Source of the DNA: an uncultured Actinomycetota bacterium | GTDB taxonomy: Bacteria > Actinomycetota > Actinomycetes > Streptosporangiales > Streptosporangiaceae | NCBI GenBank assembly: GCA_963725175.1 | Contig: CAVRXH010000006.1 | Coordinates: forward strand, 5,939,580-6,003,579 | DNA: 64,000 bases | Reading direction: 5' to 3' | In this document: positions 2,698 to 43,562 of the stretch, one piece after another | How positions within the stretch are numbered: the stretch's first letter is position 1 | Layout: every line of letters begins with the position of its first letter | The notes under the pieces: generated by a model | What the model saw: only the letters and a program-made list of their open reading frames with translations | Told to the model about the DNA's origin: nothing | The model's database searches: none | Position numbers and translations under genes: made by a program

Positions 2698-3576
2698 ATG
2701 AATAGTGATTCATCCGTGGTGCCGGCTCAGCGACCTGCGGCATCCGCGAGCGGGACCCTGGACGTGCGCGGGGTGACCGTGCGGTTCGGCGGCCTGACCG
2801 CGCTGGACGACGTGTCGCTCACCGCGGCCGGCCAGCAGGTGACCGGGATCATCGGCCCGAACGGCGCCGGCAAGACCACCCTGCTCAACGTCCTGTGCGG
2901 CTTTATCCGGCCGCAGTCGGGCCAGCTCAGCTTTGACGGGCAGCGACTGGCCCGGCTGCGGCCGCACAAGCTGGCCCGGCTGGGCATCGCCAGGACACTC
3001 CAGGGCGTCGGGCTGTTCGCCGGGCTGACGGTGGCCGAGAACGTGATGGCCGGCGCGGCCGGCGGCGACCGCGCGGGCGCGTGGCGGGCCGGCTTCTGGC
3101 CGGCCGCGCTCGGCCTGCCGGTGTCAGACGGCCGCCAGCGCGCGCTCCGCGCGCTGGCGATGGAGACGCTGGACCGGCTCGGCGTGGCGGACCTGGCCGA
3201 CGAGCTGCCCGGCGCGCTGCCGCACGGGCCGCGCAAGCGGGTCGCGCTGGCCAGGGCGATGGCGGCCCGGCCGAGGCTGCTGCTGCTCGACGAGCCGGCC
3301 AGCGGCCTGAGCGAGAGCGAGCTGCCTGAGCTGGGCGAGCTGATCACCGAGCTGGCCCGGCAGGCCACGGTCGTGGTGATCGAGCACCGGATGGACCTGA
3401 TGATGTCGGTCTGCGAGCAGATCTTCGTGCTCGACTTCGGCAAGGTGATCGCCTCGGGAACCCCGGCCCAGGTTCAGGCCGACCCGGCCGTCACCGCGGC
3501 CTACCTCGGCACCGAGCCGGAAGCGGGTCCGGTCGCCGAGACCGGGGACTCCGGCGAGGAGGCCGGCGATGAGTGA
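2698..3576 (+). CDS. livG: Branched-chain amino acid-type ABC transporter ATP-binding protein (LivG family)
   Basis: Walker A GPNGAGKTT, LSGG-type signature and a LivG-like C-terminal extension. The start is uncertain: the ORF opens at GTG 2671 and there is an ATG at 2698. Confidence 0.85.
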   Translation: MNSDSSVVPAQRPAASASGTLDVRGVTVRFGGLTALDDVSLTAAGQQVTGIIGPNGAGKTTLLNVLCGFIRPQSGQLSFDGQRLARLRPHKLARLGIARTLQGVGLFAGLTVAENVMAGAAGGDRAGAWRAGFWPAALGLPVSDGRQRALRALAMETLDRLGVADLADELPGALPHGPRKRVALARAMAARPRLLLLDEPASGLSESELPELGELITELARQATVVVIEHRMDLMMSVCEQIFVLDFGKVIASGTPAQVQADPAVTAAYLGTEPEAGPVAETGDSGEEAGDE

Positions 3577-4324
3577 GCCAGCCGCCGCCCCGGCGGCAAG
3601 CGCGGCGAGCGCCGCCCCGGTGCTGGAGGTCACCGACGTGGTGGCCGGCTACAACGCCGCGCCGGTGCTGGACGGGGTGAGCATCGCGGCCCCGGCCGGC
3701 ACGATCACCGCCGTGCTCGGCGCCAATGGCGCGGGCAAGACGACGCTGCTGCGGACCATCTCGGGCTTCCTGCGGCCGCGGGCTGGCCAGGTGCTGCTGG
3801 ACGGCGCCAGCCTCACCAGGCGCGCCCCGGAGGAGATCGCCAGGGCCGGCCTCGCGCACGTGCCCGAGGGCCAGGGCGTGATCACCGAGCTGACCGTCGA
3901 GGAGAACCTGCGGGTCGGGCTGCTGCTGCGGGACCGGGGCCAGCGCGCGGCGGCGCTGGCCGCCAGCTACGACCAGTTCCCGGTGCTGGGCAAGCGGCGG
4001 CGGGCGCTGGCCGGCTCGCTGTCCGGCGGCGAGCGGCAGATCCTGGTGATCGCCAGGGCGCTGCTCACCGCGCCGCGGGTGCTGCTGCTCGACGAGCCCT
4101 CCCTTGGCCTGGCACCCCGGATCGTCGCGCAGGTGATGGACCTGGTCAGGGGGCTACGCGACGACACGGGACTGACCGTGCTGCTGGTCGAGCAGAACGC
4201 GCGCGGCGCGCTGGCCATCGCCGATCAGGGCCTGGTGCTCAGCCTCGGCAAGGTCGTGGCCAGGGCGGGCGCCGCCGAGCTGGCCGCCGACGAGGGCCTG
4301 CGCCGGCACTACCTCGGCTTCTAG
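3569..4324 (+). CDS. livF: Branched-chain amino acid-type ABC transporter ATP-binding protein (LivF family)
   Basis: GANGAGKTTLL, LSGGERQ and LLLDEPS motifs. The ATG overlaps the livG stop by 8 nt. Confidence 0.88.
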   Translation: MSEPAAAPAASAASAAPVLEVTDVVAGYNAAPVLDGVSIAAPAGTITAVLGANGAGKTTLLRTISGFLRPRAGQVLLDGASLTRRAPEEIARAGLAHVPEGQGVITELTVEENLRVGLLLRDRGQRAAALAASYDQFPVLGKRRRALAGSLSGGERQILVIARALLTAPRVLLLDEPSLGLAPRIVAQVMDLVRGLRDDTGLTVLLVEQNARGALAIADQGLVLSLGKVVARAGAAELAADEGLRRHYLGF

Positions 4325-14831: not shown

Positions 14832-16174
14832 CGATGAGCGTGGCGCGGCTGACGCGGCGGGTGCCGCCGCTGCTGCGCGAGGTCACCTTCCGGCGGTACT
14901 GGACCGCGCAGTCGGTCTCCATGCTGGGTGACCAGGTCACCACCATCGCGATGCCGCTCGCCGCCGTTCTCGCGCTGCACGCCACCGCCAGCGACATGGG
15001 CTACCTGACCGCGCTGGAATGGCTGCCCAGCCTGCTGTTCGGCCTGGTCGCCGGCGCCTGGGTGGACCGGCGCGGCCGGCGCCGGGCGGTGATGATCGCC
15101 GCCGACCTCGGCAGGTTCCTGCTGCTCGCCAGCGTCCCGGTCTGCTACGGCCTGGGCGTGCTCACCCTCGGCCAGCTCTACGGCGTGGCGTTCGGGGCGG
15201 GCCTGCTGAGCATCTTTTTCACGGTGTCGGACGCCAGCATGTTCGTCGCCATCGTGCCCGAGGACCAGTACGTCGAGGGCAACTCGCTGGTGTACGGGAG
15301 CCGGGCGATGTCGTTCGTCGTCGGGCCGAGCGTCGGCGGGCTGCTGGTCCAGTTGCTGTCCGCGCCGGCGGCACTCGCGGCGGACGCGCTGTCCTTCCTC
15401 GGCTCGGCGTTCTCCCTCAGCCGGATCTCGCCGAAGGAGCCGCCGCCCGACCCCGGCGGCCGTGGCTCGGTCACCGCAGGCGCCCGGTACATCGTGGGCG
15501 CGCCCGTCGTCCGGGCCTCGCTGATGGCCGTCGCGGTGATCAACTTCTTCACGCTGATGTACTTCACCCTGTTCATCCTGTACGCCACCAGGGACCTGCA
15601 CGTCCGGGCCGGCCTGCTCGGCCTGGTGCTGGGCGCGGCCGCCGTGGGCGGGGTGCTCGGCGCGGTGCTGACCCGGCGGCTCGCGGCGGCCATCGGCGTG
15701 GGCTGGGCTTACATCGCCGGGTGCGCCGGGTACACCGCGCCGCTCGCCCTGGTGCCGCTGGCCGGCGGGGCGCGGCCCGAGGTGCTGGCGATGCTGTTCG
15801 CCGCCGAGTTCTGCTCCGGGTTCGGCGTGATGGTGCTGGACATCAGCATCGGATCGATCTTCGCGGCGGTGATTCCCGACAAGCTCAGGGCCAGGGTGAC
15901 CGGCGCGTTCCAGGCGGTGAACTACGGCACCAGGCCGGTCGGCGCCCTGGCCGGCGGCATCCTCGGCAGCTCGCTGGGGCTGCGCTCGACGCTGTGGATC
16001 GGCGTGGTCGGCGGTTTCGCCGGCGCGCTGCTGCTGCTCGCCTCGCCGCTGCCCAGGTTTCGCATGCCGGTCACGGACCCTGACGCGGAGTCCGATGCGG
16101 GGCCGAACGCGGCGCCGGACTTCGAGCCGGGCGTCGGGCCGGAGGATCAGCGGCCGGAGCCCGCTACTTCCTAG
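14828..16174 (+). CDS. MFS transporter
   Basis: 448-aa protein with 12 predicted TM segments. The start overlaps the regulator's stop (GTGA). Confidence 0.85.
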   Translation: MTMSVARLTRRVPPLLREVTFRRYWTAQSVSMLGDQVTTIAMPLAAVLALHATASDMGYLTALEWLPSLLFGLVAGAWVDRRGRRRAVMIAADLGRFLLLASVPVCYGLGVLTLGQLYGVAFGAGLLSIFFTVSDASMFVAIVPEDQYVEGNSLVYGSRAMSFVVGPSVGGLLVQLLSAPAALAADALSFLGSAFSLSRISPKEPPPDPGGRGSVTAGARYIVGAPVVRASLMAVAVINFFTLMYFTLFILYATRDLHVRAGLLGLVLGAAAVGGVLGAVLTRRLAAAIGVGWAYIAGCAGYTAPLALVPLAGGARPEVLAMLFAAEFCSGFGVMVLDISIGSIFAAVIPDKLRARVTGAFQAVNYGTRPVGALAGGILGSSLGLRSTLWIGVVGGFAGALLLLASPLPRFRMPVTDPDAESDAGPNAAPDFEPGVGPEDQRPEPATS

Positions 16175-17349
16175 CCCGCCATGCTCAGCCGGGCCAGCGC
16201 GGCCCCGTAGCGGATCGCGACAAGCTGGCCGACCGCTGAGTGCGCGCCCAGCGGGGCCACGCAGGGCGCGCCGAGGGCCGAGCTGATCGCTTCCAGCTCC
16301 CGCCGAGGAGTTTCCGGGCCGATCAGGCACGGGGCGATGACCGGCCGCTCGGCACCCGCCTCGCGGAGCCTGGCCAGCGCGGCGTCGATGCTGGCCGGGT
16401 CGTCGATCGAGGCCGGGGCCGTCGGCATGGCCAGCCGGGAGGCCAGCAGCACCGCCGCGACACCCGCCGCGCCAGTCGCCTCTACGCCGCGGTCGGCGAG
16501 CACTATGACGCCGTAGTTCGTGGTCGAGATAGACAGGCCGCGAGACCGCGCGTTGCGGGCCAGGCCCGCCTCCGCCAGCCGGGCGTGCAGCGCCTCGGCG
16601 ATCAGCGGGTGCGGTCCCAGGTGCGCGCCGAGCATGACCTGCCCGCCGGCGCCTTCCGCCGCCCTGGCCAGCGCCGCGTCTATGGCCTGATGCGGGCCCG
16701 CGAGCAGCGGCACGATCACGCCGCCGAGCGCTCGCTCGCCGGCCGGCACCTCGTCGAAACGCAGGCAGTCGGTCAGCCGGTGCGCGTCCCCGCCCAGGAA
16801 GCCGACCCGGATCTCGACGCCGGGGCACGAGGTTTCCGCGGTAGCCGCGATCTGCTCGATCGTCCCGATGTGCTCGCCGTCGGCGCCGCCTGGAACCGCG
16901 ATGACCAGGGCCGGCGCGTCCGAGGACACGCTCAGCCGGTGCGGGCTGCGGTGCCGCCCGGCCGGCCGGGTCCGCATGGTCCGCCGGGGCAGGGCGCCGT
17001 TTCGCTGCGGCATGTCGTCACCGCGCTGCGGCAGTCCTCCGTCGCGCTGGGGGAGCCCGCCGTCGCGCTGCGGGAGCCCGCCATCGCGCTGCGGGAGCGG
17101 CTCGCCGCGCCGGGGCAGCGACTCGGCCGCCGGCAGCGGCGCGAGCGAGTCGCTGGTGGTCTCGCTGGAGGCCGGCCGCTGCGGCCGTTCGAACAGGCTG
17201 CCGCCCGATGCGGTCGGGTTATCGCCGCCCGGCTGCCTGCGCCGGGGCAGCGGGGCTGACCCCGGCGAGGGTTCACGCCAAGGCGGCTGCTGCGGATCCG
17301 GGCTCTGGTCAATCACGATGACGTATCGTAATCGCTGGTGGCGGCGCAT
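16171..17349 (-). CDS. CbiX/SirB-type sirohydrochlorin chelatase (double CbiX domain) with a ~150-aa disordered Pro/Arg-rich N-terminal extension
   Basis: The C-terminal ~240 aa resemble two CbiX repeats (..LVIAVPGGADGEH.., ..VIVLADRG..). High GC3 persists through the N-terminal extension. The true start is uncertain. Confidence 0.7.
   Translation of the reverse strand: MRRHQRLRYVIVIDQSPDPQQPPWREPSPGSAPLPRRRQPGGDNPTASGGSLFERPQRPASSETTSDSLAPLPAAESLPRRGEPLPQRDGGLPQRDGGLPQRDGGLPQRGDDMPQRNGALPRRTMRTRPAGRHRSPHRLSVSSDAPALVIAVPGGADGEHIGTIEQIAATAETSCPGVEIRVGFLGGDAHRLTDCLRFDEVPAGERALGGVIVPLLAGPHQAIDAALARAAEGAGGQVMLGAHLGPHPLIAEALHARLAEAGLARNARSRGLSISTTNYGVIVLADRGVEATGAAGVAAVLLASRLAMPTAPASIDDPASIDAALARLREAGAERPVIAPCLIGPETPRRELEAISSALGAPCVAPLGAHSAVGQLVAIRYGAALARLSMAG
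17024..17107. repeat. 21-bp tandem repeat, about 4 units, inside the cbiX-like gene
   Basis: Units cgcgctgcggcagtcctccgt / cgcgctgggggagcccgccgt / cgcgctgcgggagcccgccat / cgcgctgcgggagcggctcgc. They encode GLPQRDG heptads on the minus strand. Confidence 0.85.
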
Positions 17350-17440: not shown

Positions 17441-17809
17441 CTAGTCGTCCCGCAGCATGCTGCGGTAGACGGCGATGAGCGCACTCCGCTGCTCCGGGCT
17501 CAGCCGCCCCTCAGCCTTGATCGCGTCCTCTACACCCGGCGCAATCGCTGCCCCGCCGCCCGACCGGTCGTGCCGCAGCAAGCCGGCCTGAGCGAGCAGC
17601 GTCTCGGTTGAGACGTTCAGCGCGTCTGAGATCAGCCGGATCACCCGCACGCTCGGCTGGTGCAGCCCGCGCTCGATCTGGCTGAGGTAGGGGTTGGACA
17701 GCCGGGTGCGCTCAGCGAGCTGCCGCAGCGACAGGTTGGCGAGCTTGCGCTTGTCGCGAATGAAGGCGCCAAGCGCCTCCATCTGGCCATCCCACGGTGG
17801 TTCGGTCAT
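17441..17809 (-). CDS. XRE-family helix-turn-helix transcriptional regulator
   Basis: ATG at 17809. Motif ..LSLRQLAERTRLSNPYLSQIERGLHQPSVRVIRLISDALNVS... Confidence 0.85.
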   Translation of the reverse strand: MTEPPWDGQMEALGAFIRDKRKLANLSLRQLAERTRLSNPYLSQIERGLHQPSVRVIRLISDALNVSTETLLAQAGLLRHDRSGGGAAIAPGVEDAIKAEGRLSPEQRSALIAVYRSMLRDD

Positions 17810-17925: not shown

Positions 17926-18921
17926 TCACGCCTCGGGCTTGTCAGCCTTCTGGCTGCCGCCCTTAGCCGTCCGGCTGGCCGCCTTCTTGGTCCCGGCCTG
18001 GCCAGCCGTGGTGTCCGTCTTCCCGGCCGTGCCCGTCTTCCCGGCCGTGCCCGTCTTCGCGGCGGCAGTGCCGCTCTTCCGGGCAGCGGTGGCGGACTTC
18101 GCGGCGATGGTGCCGGCTTTTCCGGCAGTGGTGCCGGTCTTCGCGGCGGTGGCGCTGGCCTTCGCGGAGCTCGTCGTCGGGCTCTTCTTCGGCGTGGTCT
18201 TCCGCGCCCGAGCCCGCGGCGTCGCGGTCTCGGTGGCGTCGCCCTGGCCGCCGTCCGTCCCGTCCGCGTCGCTCGCGGCGTTTCCGGCCGCAGCGGTGTC
18301 AGCGGCAGCGGTGTCAGCGGCAGCAGGGCTGGCGTGAGCATCGGCCGGGCCGGGCTTTGCCTGGCCGGTCGTCATGCTGCCGTGCGTGGCGCTCTCCTGC
18401 GCGGTGCCGGGGTCGTGCGCGACGGGCGTGCTGCTGGCTGTCCCCGAGCCGGGAAGCGCGGCGCGGACGGACTGGGCTGCCTGGACGGCCTGGCCAATCC
18501 GGTTCACGCCCTGGGCCAGCAGCGGCCCGGCGACCTGGGCGCCGCGCGCCAGGATCGGGCCAGCCGCCTCGGCGACCTGCCCAGCGATCCTGGTCCCGGC
18601 CGCGAACGCCTGCTCGGCGACGTCCTGTGCGCCGCTCAGCAGCTTCTCCCTGCTGGGCAGCTTCGGCATAGGCGGCGTCTGGATCTTGATGTCGGGCAGC
18701 TTCATCTCGGGCAGCTTGAGGTCCGGAAGCTGCGGCCGGAATGACTCGGCGGCGGCCGTCAGGCTCTTGACGACCTCGGCCACCGTCTCCTGGCCCTTGC
18801 GGAGCTGCTCGGGGGCGTTCTTCGCCTGCTGCTGTGCCTTGCGGGCCTGCTCCTGCGCCTTACGGGCGGCTCCGATGAGCTGATCTTGCAGCTCCTGCCC
18901 GACGGCCTTGGTGTCGATCAT
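17926..18921 (-). CDS. Coiled-coil protein with a Lys/Ala/Thr-rich repetitive C-terminal tail (HbhA / histone-H1-tail-like)
   Basis: 331 aa. N-terminal Gln/Lys/Ala-rich helical region, central Ala/Gly-rich region, and a C-terminal tail of AAKTGT/AGKTGT repeats (nt about 17985-18180). High GC3. Confidence 0.7.
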   Translation of the reverse strand: MIDTKAVGQELQDQLIGAARKAQEQARKAQQQAKNAPEQLRKGQETVAEVVKSLTAAAESFRPQLPDLKLPEMKLPDIKIQTPPMPKLPSREKLLSGAQDVAEQAFAAGTRIAGQVAEAAGPILARGAQVAGPLLAQGVNRIGQAVQAAQSVRAALPGSGTASSTPVAHDPGTAQESATHGSMTTGQAKPGPADAHASPAAADTAAADTAAAGNAASDADGTDGGQGDATETATPRARARKTTPKKSPTTSSAKASATAAKTGTTAGKAGTIAAKSATAARKSGTAAAKTGTAGKTGTAGKTDTTAGQAGTKKAASRTAKGGSQKADKPEA

Positions 18922-19017
18922 CGCGTGTGTCCTCCTCGCGTCTGCTGCAAACTATATCAAGCAAATCGCGTGCTATGCCAAGCGCCCCAGCTAGCGACGC
19001 CGGGGCGAGGCAGTTCC

Positions 19018-19125
19018 GCCAGGTCGGCCACGCCGGCACCGCTGCCAGGTCGGCTGCACCCGCATCTCCCTAGGTCGCCCACGACGGCATCGCCGCCACC
19101 TCGGCCACGCCGGCATCGGCATCCC
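19018..19125. repeat. Degenerate ~25-27-bp tandem repeats (about 4 units) upstream of the repeat-tail protein gene
   Basis: Units begin ccaggtcggccacgccggca / ccaggtcggctgcacccgca / ctaggtcgcccacgacggca / cctcggccacgccggcatcg. Confidence 0.6.
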
Positions 19126-19344
19126 GGCAACAGTGGATGCGGGTTTGCTGCGGTCGCCACGGCAGCAAAACCCGGCTCGCTGCCGCTGGGTCCGGCGTGC
19201 CCCCATCTGCTTCGCGCCCGCTGGGGGCGGTGCTACGCCCGCGCCGGCTCGCTGCCGCTGGGCCGCCGTCGGCTGCCGGCCACGCCGTGCTTGCTGCCTG
19301 CTGAGGTCGGCCGCCCGGCGGGCGAAACCCGCCGGGAACTAGCA

Positions 19345-19398
19345 ACAGTGAACCCGCTTTTACTGTCGCTGAAACGACAGTAAAAGCGGGTTCACTGT
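19345..19398. repeat. Perfect 24-bp inverted repeat (54-nt hairpin) with nested palindromes
   Basis: ACAGTGAACCCGCTTTTACTGTCG-ctgaaa-CGACAGTAAAAGCGGGTTCACTGT. Each arm is bounded by ACAGT..ACTGT. The element is more AT-rich than its surroundings. Confidence 0.9.
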
Positions 19399-19432
19399 CG
19401 TAGGCGTCCGCAGTTCAGCTGATAACAGCAAG

Positions 19433-19563
19433 AGGCAGGGCAGGGCAGGGCAGGGCAGGGCAGGGCAGGGCAGGGCAGGGCAGGGCAGGGCAGGGCAGGG
19501 CAGGGCAGGGCAGGGCAGGGCAGGGGCAGGGGCAGGGCAGGGGCAGGGGCAGGGGCGGGGCGG
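19433..19563. repeat. Pentanucleotide microsatellite (CAGGG)x17 grading into (CAGGGG)n; G-quadruplex-type tract on the + strand
   Basis: 17 perfect CAGGG units span 19436-19520. They are followed by CAGGGG x2, CAGGG, CAGGGG x3 and CGGGGCGG. Confidence 0.95.
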
Positions 19564-19716
19564 TGACTGGGGGAATGAAGATTCGGTTTGCGAAGGATTT
19601 GGCGGGGTGGAGGGCGGAATTTTGGGGGCCGGGGAAAGGCGGGGAGGTGGAGAGACGAGGGGATAGCCAGGGGTGGCGCGTAATGCGCCGGAAGTCGCGC
19701 CGAGGGGGGCGCGGGG

Positions 19717-20001
19717 CTAGCCGTGCAGGGGGTGCGGGCTAGCGGGCTTGCTCGCGACCACGTAGGCGGCGAAGAGAATCGCTCCGGCAATCAGCGTGAC
19801 CCTGGTCCACCTGGGGGCGCCTTTCCAGCTGAAGCCGGCGACCAGCATGGCGGGGACGGTGAGGATCGGAACGACGACTAGGCCGATGATGGCCGCGACC
19901 ACGGCGAATGTTCCGGTGCGCTTGCTGTTCAGCGCACCTTTCGGAATGAGTGCCACGCACTGAGCGTAACTCCGGGTAAACAATTCGTACAGGAATGGCA
20001 A
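19717..20001 (-). CDS. Small membrane protein (2 predicted TM segments)
   Basis: High GC3 from about codon 16 onward (..FAVVAAIIGLVVVPILTVPAMLVAGF..LIAGAILFAAYVV..). The first 15 codons are AT-rich, so the real start may be GTG 19956. Confidence 0.5.
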   Translation of the reverse strand: MPFLYELFTRSYAQCVALIPKGALNSKRTGTFAVVAAIIGLVVVPILTVPAMLVAGFSWKGAPRWTRVTLIAGAILFAAYVVASKPASPHPLHG

Positions 20002-20241
20002 CTGCGAGAATGATCACAGCGACCCTGGAGAGGCCCAAAATCCGTGGTCAGCCGTCCGGACGCGGCGAAAACGCAGGGGAAACGGCGCTGACGTGGCCGC
20101 CGGGTGCTGACCGGAATGCCAGTGGTCTCGCGCCAGAACGTCTATTTGTGCCAATCAGAGAACATCGCGTATCAAGCTTCCCGCGAACCATTGTTCGCTA
20201 TCCGAATAGCAGCGTGCGACATGTGTTGCTAGCGTTGCGGC

Positions 20242-20745
20242 ATGACCACCGAGCGAGTGCTCCCGGCCCTGGAGGCGGGAGACCGGCAGCTGCTCACGGC
20301 CTTCCTGGATTTCCAGCGGGCCACGCTGGCCACCAAGTGCGCGGGACTGGCCGATGACCAGCTCCGCGAGATGGCGGTCCCGCCGTCCAGCCTGTCGCTG
20401 CTCGGCCTGGTCCGGCACATGGCCGAGGTAGAGAAGAACTGGTTCCGCCCGCTGCTTGAGGGCGACGGCATGGCCGGGATCTGGGCGCCGGGGCTCGACG
20501 TTGAGCCGGCCTTTGACGAGGTGGCGTCGGCCGACGTCGCGGCGGCGTTCACGGCCTGGGACGCCGAGTGCGAGCACGCGCGGGAGCTGGTGGCGGCCGC
20601 GCCTTCGCTGGACGCCACCGGCATGCGCGGCGGCGAGCGGTTCTCGCTGCGCTGGGTGATCGTGCACCTGATCGAGGAGTACGCACGGCACAACGGGCAC
20701 GCGGACCTGCTGCGCGAGCGAATCGACGGCTCGACCGGCCAGTAG
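20242..20745 (+). CDS. DinB-family (DUF664 / mycothiol-transferase-like) protein
   Basis: ..LLTAFLDFQRATLATKCAGLADDQL.. and ..RWVIVHLIEEYARHNGHADLLRERIDG.. are hallmark DinB/DUF664 segments. Confidence 0.8.
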   Translation: MTTERVLPALEAGDRQLLTAFLDFQRATLATKCAGLADDQLREMAVPPSSLSLLGLVRHMAEVEKNWFRPLLEGDGMAGIWAPGLDVEPAFDEVASADVAAAFTAWDAECEHARELVAAAPSLDATGMRGGERFSLRWVIVHLIEEYARHNGHADLLRERIDGSTGQ

Positions 20746-42656: not shown

Positions 42657-43562
42657 TCAGCCCCGGTACGCCACCGTCACGTAGTCCGACGACTTCGCCC
42701 CATAGCTGGACCCGGTCACGTACACCCTGGTACCGGCCGGGCTGACCGCCACCGTGTAGGCGAAGTCGTGGCTGTTGCCCGGCCCCTGGTAGCGGGCCGC
42801 CCACAGTCGCGCCCCGGTCGCCGCGCTGTACGCCACCGTCGCGTAGTCAGACGACTTCGCCGCCTGGCTGCGCCCGGTGACGAACACCCTGGTCCCGCCC
42901 CGGCTGACCGCGATGGCGTTAGGGCTGTCGTAGCCGTACTTGCCGGCGCCGTTGTAGCGGGCCGCCCACAGCCGAGCGCCGGTCGCGGCGCGGTACGCCA
43001 CCGTGGCGTAGTCAGTCGACGTTGACCCGTCGCTGGACCCGGTGACATACACCCTGTTCCCGCCGGGGCTGACCGCCACGGCGGAGGCGTAGTCGTTGCC
43101 GTTGGCCGGGCCGTTGTACCTGGCCACCCATAGCCGCGCGCCGGTCGCGGCGTTATAGGCCACCGTCGCGAAGTCAGCCGACGCTGGCCCCTGCCTGGAT
43201 CCGGTGACGTAGACCGTGGCCCCGTCCGGGCTCACCGCCAGGGCGGCAGCGGTGCCGTCGCGGTAGCGCGCCGTCCACAGCCGCGCGCCGGTCGCGGCGC
43301 TGTACGCCACCGTCGCGTAACCAGTCGGCGTCGCCTGGCTGGACCCGGTCACGTATACCCGGAGCCCGCCCGGGCCGACCGCCAAGGCGGTGGCGGTCCC
43401 GTTGCGGTGGCGCGCCAGCCATAGCCGCGCGCCGCCCGCAGGAACCGGCCGGCCGGCCGCTCCCTCGGCGGCACCCGATGCGGCCAGAGCCGATGCCGCC
43501 AGCGCCATACCTAACGCCGCCGCGCACAATCCGCGCGCCACGTTCCCGCCCATCGGAGTCAT
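42657..43562 (-). CDS. Secreted six-repeat beta-propeller protein (SBBP-type repeats)
   Basis: A signal peptide is followed by six ~43-aa repeats of the form YATVAY.AATGARLW.ARY.G......A.AVAVSP.G.RVYVTGSS. Confidence 0.75.
   Translation of the reverse strand: MTPMGGNVARGLCAAALGMALAASALAASGAAEGAAGRPVPAGGARLWLARHRNGTATALAVGPGGLRVYVTGSSQATPTGYATVAYSAATGARLWTARYRDGTAAALAVSPDGATVYVTGSRQGPASADFATVAYNAATGARLWVARYNGPANGNDYASAVAVSPGGNRVYVTGSSDGSTSTDYATVAYRAATGARLWAARYNGAGKYGYDSPNAIAVSRGGTRVFVTGRSQAAKSSDYATVAYSAATGARLWAARYQGPGNSHDFAYTVAVSPAGTRVYVTGSSYGAKSSDYVTVAYRG

Follow-up and report, generated by a model that had tools for sequence, protein, structure and literature searches.

Genes around the array

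All genes near the repeat array are on the minus strand of the window, which here means the whole 64-kb stretch of DNA that was analysed (72% G+C). They include a small membrane-protein gene, a gene for a 331-aa protein and the gene of an XRE-type HTH regulator, which are listed in Table 1 along with the elements between them. The gap between the first two genes is 795 bp long (18922-19716). The array begins 156 nt past the TAG stop of the membrane-protein gene, in that gene's 3' flank, and lies 515-639 nt upstream of the ATG of the 331-aa gene. An earlier reading of the sequence alone had placed the array in an intergenic region of about 800 bp, downstream of the membrane-protein gene and about 500-640 bp upstream of the gene for the Lys/Ala/Thr-rich protein, and these distances bear it out. 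Since both flanking genes are on the minus strand, the G-rich strand of the array is the template for each of them, as that reading had also said.

The 79-aa membrane protein is rare, with six sequences in its 90%-identity cluster, and identical copies of it are P0130/P0158. Searches of Pfam, NCBIfam and PDB gave no match to the 331-aa protein, and a homologue search with it returned distant matches only, with the low-complexity tail swamping the search. Among the relatives its orthologues range from 247 to 375 aa. The best matches of the HTH protein are from soil metagenomes and from MAGs labelled Streptosporangiaceae. The gene pair formed by the XRE HTH regulator and the basic repeat protein is syntenic throughout the relatives, and it may resemble the mycobacterial Rv0474-hbhA neighbourhood. 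In-frame 21-nt tandem repeats occur in the 331-aa gene (18005-18167), where they encode KTGTAG-type units of the basic tail, and also in a CbiX-like gene (16171-17349), where they lie at 17003-17140 and encode three to four copies of GGLPQRD in the N-terminal region.

Table 1. Features of the array locus, listed in the direction of transcription.
Feature	Position	Strand	Remarks
Small membrane-protein gene	19717-19956	-	79 aa; GTG start, as called in syntenic relatives; GC3 0.84
Non-repetitive C-rich tract (in transcript)	19561-19716	-	between membrane-protein stop and array; plus strand 83 G, 23 C
Degenerate array edge	19521-19560	+	CAGGGG x2, CAGGG, CAGGGG x3, CGGGG (7 variant units)
Perfect array core	19436-19520	+	17 x CAGGG; minus strand reads (CCCTG)17
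Block B, GCCTCTTGCTGTTATCAGC	19418-19435	-	~18-19 nt; invariant in the window and L001-L004; promoter-side edge of the variable slot (alignment A1)
Perfect 24-bp inverted repeat	19345-19398		6-nt loop; 37 nt from array
Second hairpin	19314-19336		G+C-rich; 9-bp stem CCCGGCGGG/CCCGCCGGG; RNA and DNA folds
Predicted promoter of 331-aa gene	18951-18981	-	TTGGCA (18976-18981), 19-nt spacer with TG, TATAGT (18951-18956)
Shine-Dalgarno of 331-aa gene, GAGGAGGA	18930-18937	-	
331-aa protein gene	17926-18921	-	ATG at 18921; Lys/Ala/Thr-rich repetitive tail
XRE-type HTH regulator gene	17441-17806	-	

Structure and limits of the array

The whole array is about 125 bp long and holds 24 near-perfect units (19434/19436-19560), so the limits first assigned to it, 19433-19563, were slightly wide. 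The perfect core was found by unit parsing, by TRF and as repeat family D1, and the parsing confirms the earlier description of 17 perfect CAGGG units followed by units of the CAGGGG type. Shifting the register to GGCAG gives 18 perfect units, or 90 nt, from 19434 onward. TRF reports the array at 19434-19554 with a period of 5, 23.4 copies and a score of 206, and it is by far the strongest short-unit repeat of the window. The 15-mer (CAGGG)3, with up to two mismatches allowed, has 19 matches where 0.78 are expected. With 17 perfect and seven variant units arranged head to tail without interruption, and a unit within the 1-6 nt range, the array is a simple sequence repeat (SSR) in the usual sense. 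No second SSR with a unit of 4-7 nt and at least six perfect copies was found within the window.

The plus strand of the array contains 78 G and 24 C. These form 24 tracts of G3-4, 23 of them spaced by a 2-nt CA loop. More than 25 such tracts had been claimed; the 25th (GGGGG, at 19569) lies outside the array.

Elements of the spacer

The transcript of the non-repetitive tract between the membrane-protein stop and the array is 15% G and 53% C over its 156 nt. Within this tract, positions 19601-19678 have the most extreme G/C asymmetry of any 78-nt stretch in the 64 kb (plus strand G47:C9). The longest and strongest G/C-asymmetric stretch of the window, 347 nt at 19406-19752, has its peak in this non-repetitive part. 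Only the close relatives keep the tract, and small indels separate their versions of it. Folding of the minus-strand RNA predicts a centroid that is unstructured for about 230 nt and then forms two strong hairpins.

The perfect inverted repeat folds as DNA with -30.1 kcal/mol (z = -11.9) and is a likely terminator or pause hairpin of the membrane-protein transcript. A search of 18850-20300 against Rfam 15 gave nothing at gathering score, and at E<=1 only generic-hairpin or miRNA-like matches to the palindrome. In the L001 ortholog (~2979-3030) the inverted repeat is imperfect, with arms that differ in the central 6-7 nt. Because it is perfect in the window and imperfect in L001, the palindrome looks like a recently 'corrected' quasi-palindrome, and comparison of the two sequences suggests a template-switch mutation. 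At the same site, L002 has single CGACAG...CTGTCG-type units only.

Beyond the hairpins, toward the promoter, lie about 330 nt of GC-rich sequence full of repeats. A 26-nt period is repeated four times at 19009-19123 (TRF score 102), and an exact 19-nt direct repeat, CCGGCTCGCTGCCGCTGGG, is found at 19172-19190 and again at 19244-19262, a spacing of 72 nt. A further hairpin at 19160-19200, GGGTTTTGCTGCCG...CGCAGCAAACCC, has paired changes in the L001 ortholog, where it reads CAGGTTTGCTGTCG...CGGCAGCAAACCTG. The promoter-distal repeat-rich segment is wholly missing from L003/L004.

The promoter of the 331-aa gene was predicted from conservation, using alignment A1 and the more distant relatives. 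In L245-L248 and L252, whose membrane protein is 65-67% identical, the promoter/leader block is kept as TTGACA...TGATATAGT...GAGGAGGA. Since the distant relatives conserve only this proximal block, the real promoter is predicted to lie near the ATG, at about 60 nt or less from it, and the rest of the spacer turns over freely. This would put the array 455 nt upstream of the -35 element. A consensus promoter and terminator scan of 18700-20300 called no sites.

Comparison with relatives

Four syntenic contigs with the same gene order were compared with the window: L001, whose HTH protein is 98% identical, L002 (94%) and L003/L004 (93%). Over about 1.2 kb they match the window at 88-95% DNA identity. 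The flanks that bracket the array, CGAATCTTyAT on one side and block B on the other, are kept in all four contigs, and the array is absent from the slot between them in every one. Instead the slot holds 20 nt in L001 and about 70 nt in L002 and in L003/L004, and these contents are C-rich and mutually non-homologous. The slot of L002 contains CACCCCGCCCCGCCTGCCCCGCCCCGCCCCG, a (CCCCG)n-like proto-repeat similar to the degenerate edge of the window's array, and that edge shades into this CCCCG-type sequence. A slot that lacks the array between conserved flanks, or that has a short proto-repeat there, is what would be expected in the relatives of a genome whose SSR was made by slippage. Because the flanks are conserved and the content of the slot differs among relatives, the array is, judged from the alignment, a lineage-specific expansion at an indel hotspot.

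The array is also absent from L245-L252. In L245-L248 there is no C-rich tract, and other palindromes stand in its place. These are long palindromes with CATGATC-type ends (L245 3241-3420 and the equivalent positions of L246-L248), for example CATGATCCCGGAGGATT...AATCCTCCGGGATCATG, and they are reminiscent of the inverted-repeat elements of Micromonospora described below.

Two contigs come from the same lineage as the window or nearly so. The P0130 contig (2851 nt) ends 130 nt past the stop, about 27 nt short of the array, and the L244 contig, of the same or a near-identical lineage, ends about 17 nt into the slot. Short-read contigs that end at the slot are the pattern expected of an unassemblable repeat. 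Metagenomes were also scanned for the conserved 17-mer CCTCTTGCTGTTATCAG, and the result was set aside: the matches (at least 120) were at chance level and none of those listed was orthologous by blastn, with L082 sharing only about 21 nt.

Origin of the array

The best reading of the array, and in our judgement probably the right one, is that it is a young, lineage-specific microsatellite which grew by replication slippage, a step that we infer. One end of the array has degenerate CCCCG/CCCCTG units and the other has 17 identical ones, and this gradient of purity fits recent slippage. The starting point would have been a few C-rich units of the CCCCG/CCCCTG type, forming a short proto-repeat in a C/G-asymmetric non-coding 3' tract that is an indel hotspot. 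Slipped-strand mispairing would then have expanded the proto-repeat to 17 identical CCCTG units and left older degenerate units at one edge. The sequence-only reading, which had taken the array for a microsatellite prone to slippage, is supported in that the microsatellite is genuine. It is presumably still unstable in length and close to neutral.

Actinomycetota have neither MutS nor MutL, and the mismatch repair that they do have, by NucS, leaves insertion/deletion loops uncorrected. The array may persist because it interrupts no reading frame and is well separated from the downstream promoter, and because loops formed by slippage would escape post-replicative correction by NucS. The same gap in repair might explain why such arrays are found in Actinomycetota. 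Given its position, the array would probably be transcribed as (CCCUG)n in a 3' UTR, ahead of the two strong hairpins. Its presence is explicable without a specific function. All four close relatives have a C-rich slot although its sequence has turned over, and this could be a sign of selection on composition and not of neutrality.

Short tandem repeats (STRs) are depleted overall in prokaryotes, and the density of pentanucleotide STRs in bacteria is correlated with polymorphism for indels, which fits slipped-strand mispairing (PMC12699852). The array resembles the bacterial SSRs attributed to this process (PMC12699852, PMC7015867) in its head-to-tail 5-nt units, its near-perfect purity, its non-coding position and its restriction to one lineage. 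It differs from typical prokaryotic SSRs in being much longer (24 units, 125 bp).

Similar arrays in other genomes

One genome per species was scanned for (CAGGG)8, covering 185,579 species. Runs of at least eight perfect CAGGG units were found in at least 119 places, mostly in high-GC bacteria and archaea. An array of this kind had been called very unusual for a bacterial chromosome; this is true per genome, as the array is the sole such SSR in 64 kb, and it is not true in the sense of unique. Literature searches found no published description of bacterial (CAGGG)n arrays.

Among the matches listed, the arrays are 40-145 bp in size and about eleven are 100 bp or longer. By their record titles 76 of the 119 matches listed are from Actinomycetota, a raw count that is not normalised for database composition or G+C. 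These comprise Streptomyces (28), Micromonospora (15), Kitasatospora (4), Actinokineospora (4) and others (25), and the remaining matches listed are from Pseudomonadota, Planctomycetota, Bacillota, Chloroflexota and haloarchaea. When flanks were compared with flanks by blastn, nearly all of the listed arrays proved to be at unrelated loci, so (CAGGG)n arrays arose independently.

The gene context of the arrays was judged with a crude, GC3-based gene finder which recovered only 68% of the sequence as coding, so that the proportion of arrays found outside coding-like ORFs (66 of the 71 that could be classified) is approximate. Convergent (3'-3') spacers hold 37% of the arrays against 23-25% in the background (p ~0.03), a marginal excess that is likewise approximate. 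In tandem settings the transcribed sequence is G-rich in 14 cases and C-rich in 18, which is no bias. Other SSRs cluster within 300 nt of the arrays, with eight in about 71 kb against five in the remaining ~0.9 Mb, and they are often variants of the same motif. Altogether (CAGGG)n arrays are rare per genome but recurrent, and they behave like mutational products that are tolerated in non-coding 3' regions.

A strong hairpin (z<-3) adjoins the 5' side in 13% of the arrays and the 3' side in 7%, compared with 4% of controls. A general link between arrays and hairpins was considered on these figures and rejected as weak, as it is driven by the Micromonospora loci.

Structure potential of the two strands

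Tracts of G3-4 with 2-nt loops are strongly prone to form G-quadruplexes. The G-rich strand of the array has 24 such tracts where four tracts of at least three G with short loops would do, and it scores highly in G4Hunter, with 1.87 over the whole array and a maximum of 2.64 over 25 nt. The strong G-quadruplex potential first claimed for the array therefore stands as a high predicted propensity, and the G-rich template strand probably folds into tandem G-quadruplexes in vitro. Neither strand is predicted to form a significant Watson-Crick hairpin (z = 0.56 for the G-rich strand, in a nearest-neighbour DNA fold that does not model G-quadruplexes). Strong i-motif potential had been claimed for the other strand. 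Stable i-motifs at neutral pH are reported to need about five C per tract (PMC7015867), while the C-tracts here are only C3-C4, so that claim is not supported and an i-motif at neutral pH is not plausible for the array.

Known regulatory G-quadruplexes include that of the nas promoter in Paracoccus denitrificans (PMC5123632), and promoter-proximal enrichment of potential G-quadruplexes has been reported in bacteria (PMC12563890). The array is like these in having G3-4 tracts and short loops and in lying between genes of a high-GC genome. It is unlike them in having 24 tracts rather than about four and in standing on the template strand of a 3' flank. It also lacks the conserved position near a promoter that would be expected of a regulatory G-quadruplex, being unconserved in L001-L004 and L245-L252. 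Because it is absent from four syntenic close relatives and 455 nt from the predicted promoter, the array is not a conserved regulatory element.

Possible roles and other explanations

Roles as a roadblock, a contingency element, a Rho-loading site or a binding platform receive no comparative support. The most credible functional reading is a Rho-loading or roadblock insulator to which the array, the G-quadruplexes of the template strand and the two hairpins would each contribute. In this reading the array would be a working part of a terminator or insulator: either its (CCCUG)n RNA would lengthen a C-rich, G-poor, unstructured tract on which Rho loads, or tandem G-quadruplexes on the template strand would stall RNA polymerase. 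Read-through from the membrane-protein gene into the 331-aa gene would be limited in both cases, with an efficiency tuned by the number of units. We consider this unlikely. In its favour are the strongest G/C asymmetry of the window, with its peak of G47:C9 in 78 nt, the predicted order of about 230 nt of unstructured RNA and then two strong hairpins, the C-richness common to the slots of all four close relatives though their sequences differ, and the G4Hunter score of the template strand (1.87). However, slots of 20-70 nt are enough for the close relatives, so the array is dispensable there, and L245-L248 do without any C-rich tract. The arrays of other genomes show no preference for the C-rich strand as transcript, and the G-quadruplexes would have to form within duplex DNA in vivo.

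Rho utilisation (rut) regions offer a comparison. They are stretches of C-rich, G-poor and unstructured RNA that lie past a gene and ahead of pause sites. The tract at 19561-19716 and the array together provide more than the 80 nt of C-rich, G-poor, unstructured sense RNA past the stop that would be looked for, and the likeness covers composition, predicted lack of structure, the place after the stop codon and the hairpins further on. As rut sites have no defining sequence, this is a likeness of composition only, and the distant relatives lack the tract.

A related and more speculative idea starts from Micromonospora. Of 14 Micromonospora arrays whose 5' flank could be read, 12 start 0-8 nt after a terminal-inverted-repeat element of 70-85 nt, and so does one array from Actinoplanes (Micromonospora L125, L137, L140, L150, L162, L171, L194, L201, L211, L215, L222 and L230; Actinoplanes L177). 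The inverted repeats are of the types GATCTTGCACTT...AAGTGCAAGATC, GATCATGGAGT...ACTCCATGATC and GATCGACTCC...GGAGTCGATC, with a loop of 40-50 nt, and a C-rich stretch is often found on the far side of the element. The elements occur without arrays too, with two more in L211. They have no Rfam match and none were found in the literature. Such an element could be REP/MITE-like, with a G-rich flank that seeds expansion, or a true composite element. An array with a long palindrome might then be a recurrent composite of actinobacterial 3' ends that acts as a length-tunable barrier to transcription or replication, and at the present locus the 24-bp palindrome and the array of 24 units would together keep read-through from reaching the 331-aa gene; we regard this as improbable.

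It is very improbable that the array is a contingency (phase-variation) locus, in which gain and loss of 5-nt units would switch or tune either the membrane protein or the 331-aa protein, which is surface- or DNA-binding-like. The length changes of the CTCTT pentamers of Neisseria opa genes and of the tetranucleotide repeats of Haemophilus switch expression in this way. The array shares with them a long perfect tract of short units, which is expected to be hypermutable and to change length frequently. A membrane protein and a basic repeat protein are plausible environment-facing products, and the short-read assemblies of the same lineage break at the slot. Against this, the classic repeats are inside reading frames or between promoter elements, where a change in length switches the frame or the promoter, whereas the array is outside any ORF (as judged from GC3 and from indels in relatives), is separated by 156 nt from the stop of the gene before it and by 455 nt from the conserved -35 of the gene after it, and is absent in close relatives. 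The known cases are also from host-adapted bacteria, whereas the array belongs to a free-living soil actinobacterium.

We give very little credence to the array being an artefact of assembly or polishing that is absent, or much shorter, in the organism. Low-complexity repeats are error-prone in assembly, and CAGGG and CAGGGG differ in homopolymer length, which can go wrong in the polishing of long reads. Yet the array is internal, its unique flanks are collinear with four independent assemblies, its degenerate edge makes biological sense, comparable arrays are present in many finished genomes, and two independent short-read contigs of the same lineage stop at the slot as an unassemblable repeat predicts. 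The exact number of units could be off by a few, because the G3 and G4 differences are homopolymer calls.

A coding origin can be dismissed with near certainty: a 132-aa open frame (19392-19790, minus strand) that would encode (ALPCP)n does span the array, but it extends over the 3' end of the true gene for the membrane protein, has no Pfam match, has GC1/GC2/GC3 that are flat at 0.68/0.71/0.67 in its non-repeat part against a GC3 of 0.84-0.93 in real genes, and is matched in relatives by sequence without the repeat and with indels that are not multiples of 3 and break the frame. ORFs across the array were rejected as genes in general on the same flat profile (GC1=GC2=GC3 ~0.7) and the indels in relatives.

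Significance

If the array is only a product of slippage, it has value as a marker, since strains of an uncultured Streptosporangiaceae lineage could be typed by such a hypervariable locus, and it serves as a warning that short-read assemblies break at it. Going by the scan, high-GC Actinomycetota, whose repair repertoire has the gaps noted above, seem to acquire long G-rich pentanucleotide arrays repeatedly, and the arrays bear on whether repair repertoire shapes the microsatellite load of prokaryotes. Should the array form G-quadruplex roadblocks or modulate termination, it would amount to a natural insulator that can be tuned by its length.

Other repeats

A large tandem repeat elsewhere in the window, at 42666-43434, has a period of 162/144 nt and about 4.6 copies that are 76-79% identical (TRF scores 723 and 391), and presumably encodes a protein domain in several copies. 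Among the matches of the scan, positions 531-723 of L165, a contig of a Metamycoplasmataceae MAG (43% G+C), hold (CAGGG)29 adjoining (TAGGG)n. This sequence looks telomere-like and eukaryotic, and may be host contamination of the bin. At 4103-4204 of Micromonospora L194 the array is in two segments, 125 bp and 101 bp, parted by a run of N. As the assembly or record is gapped or masked inside the repeat, the true array there may exceed 300 bp.
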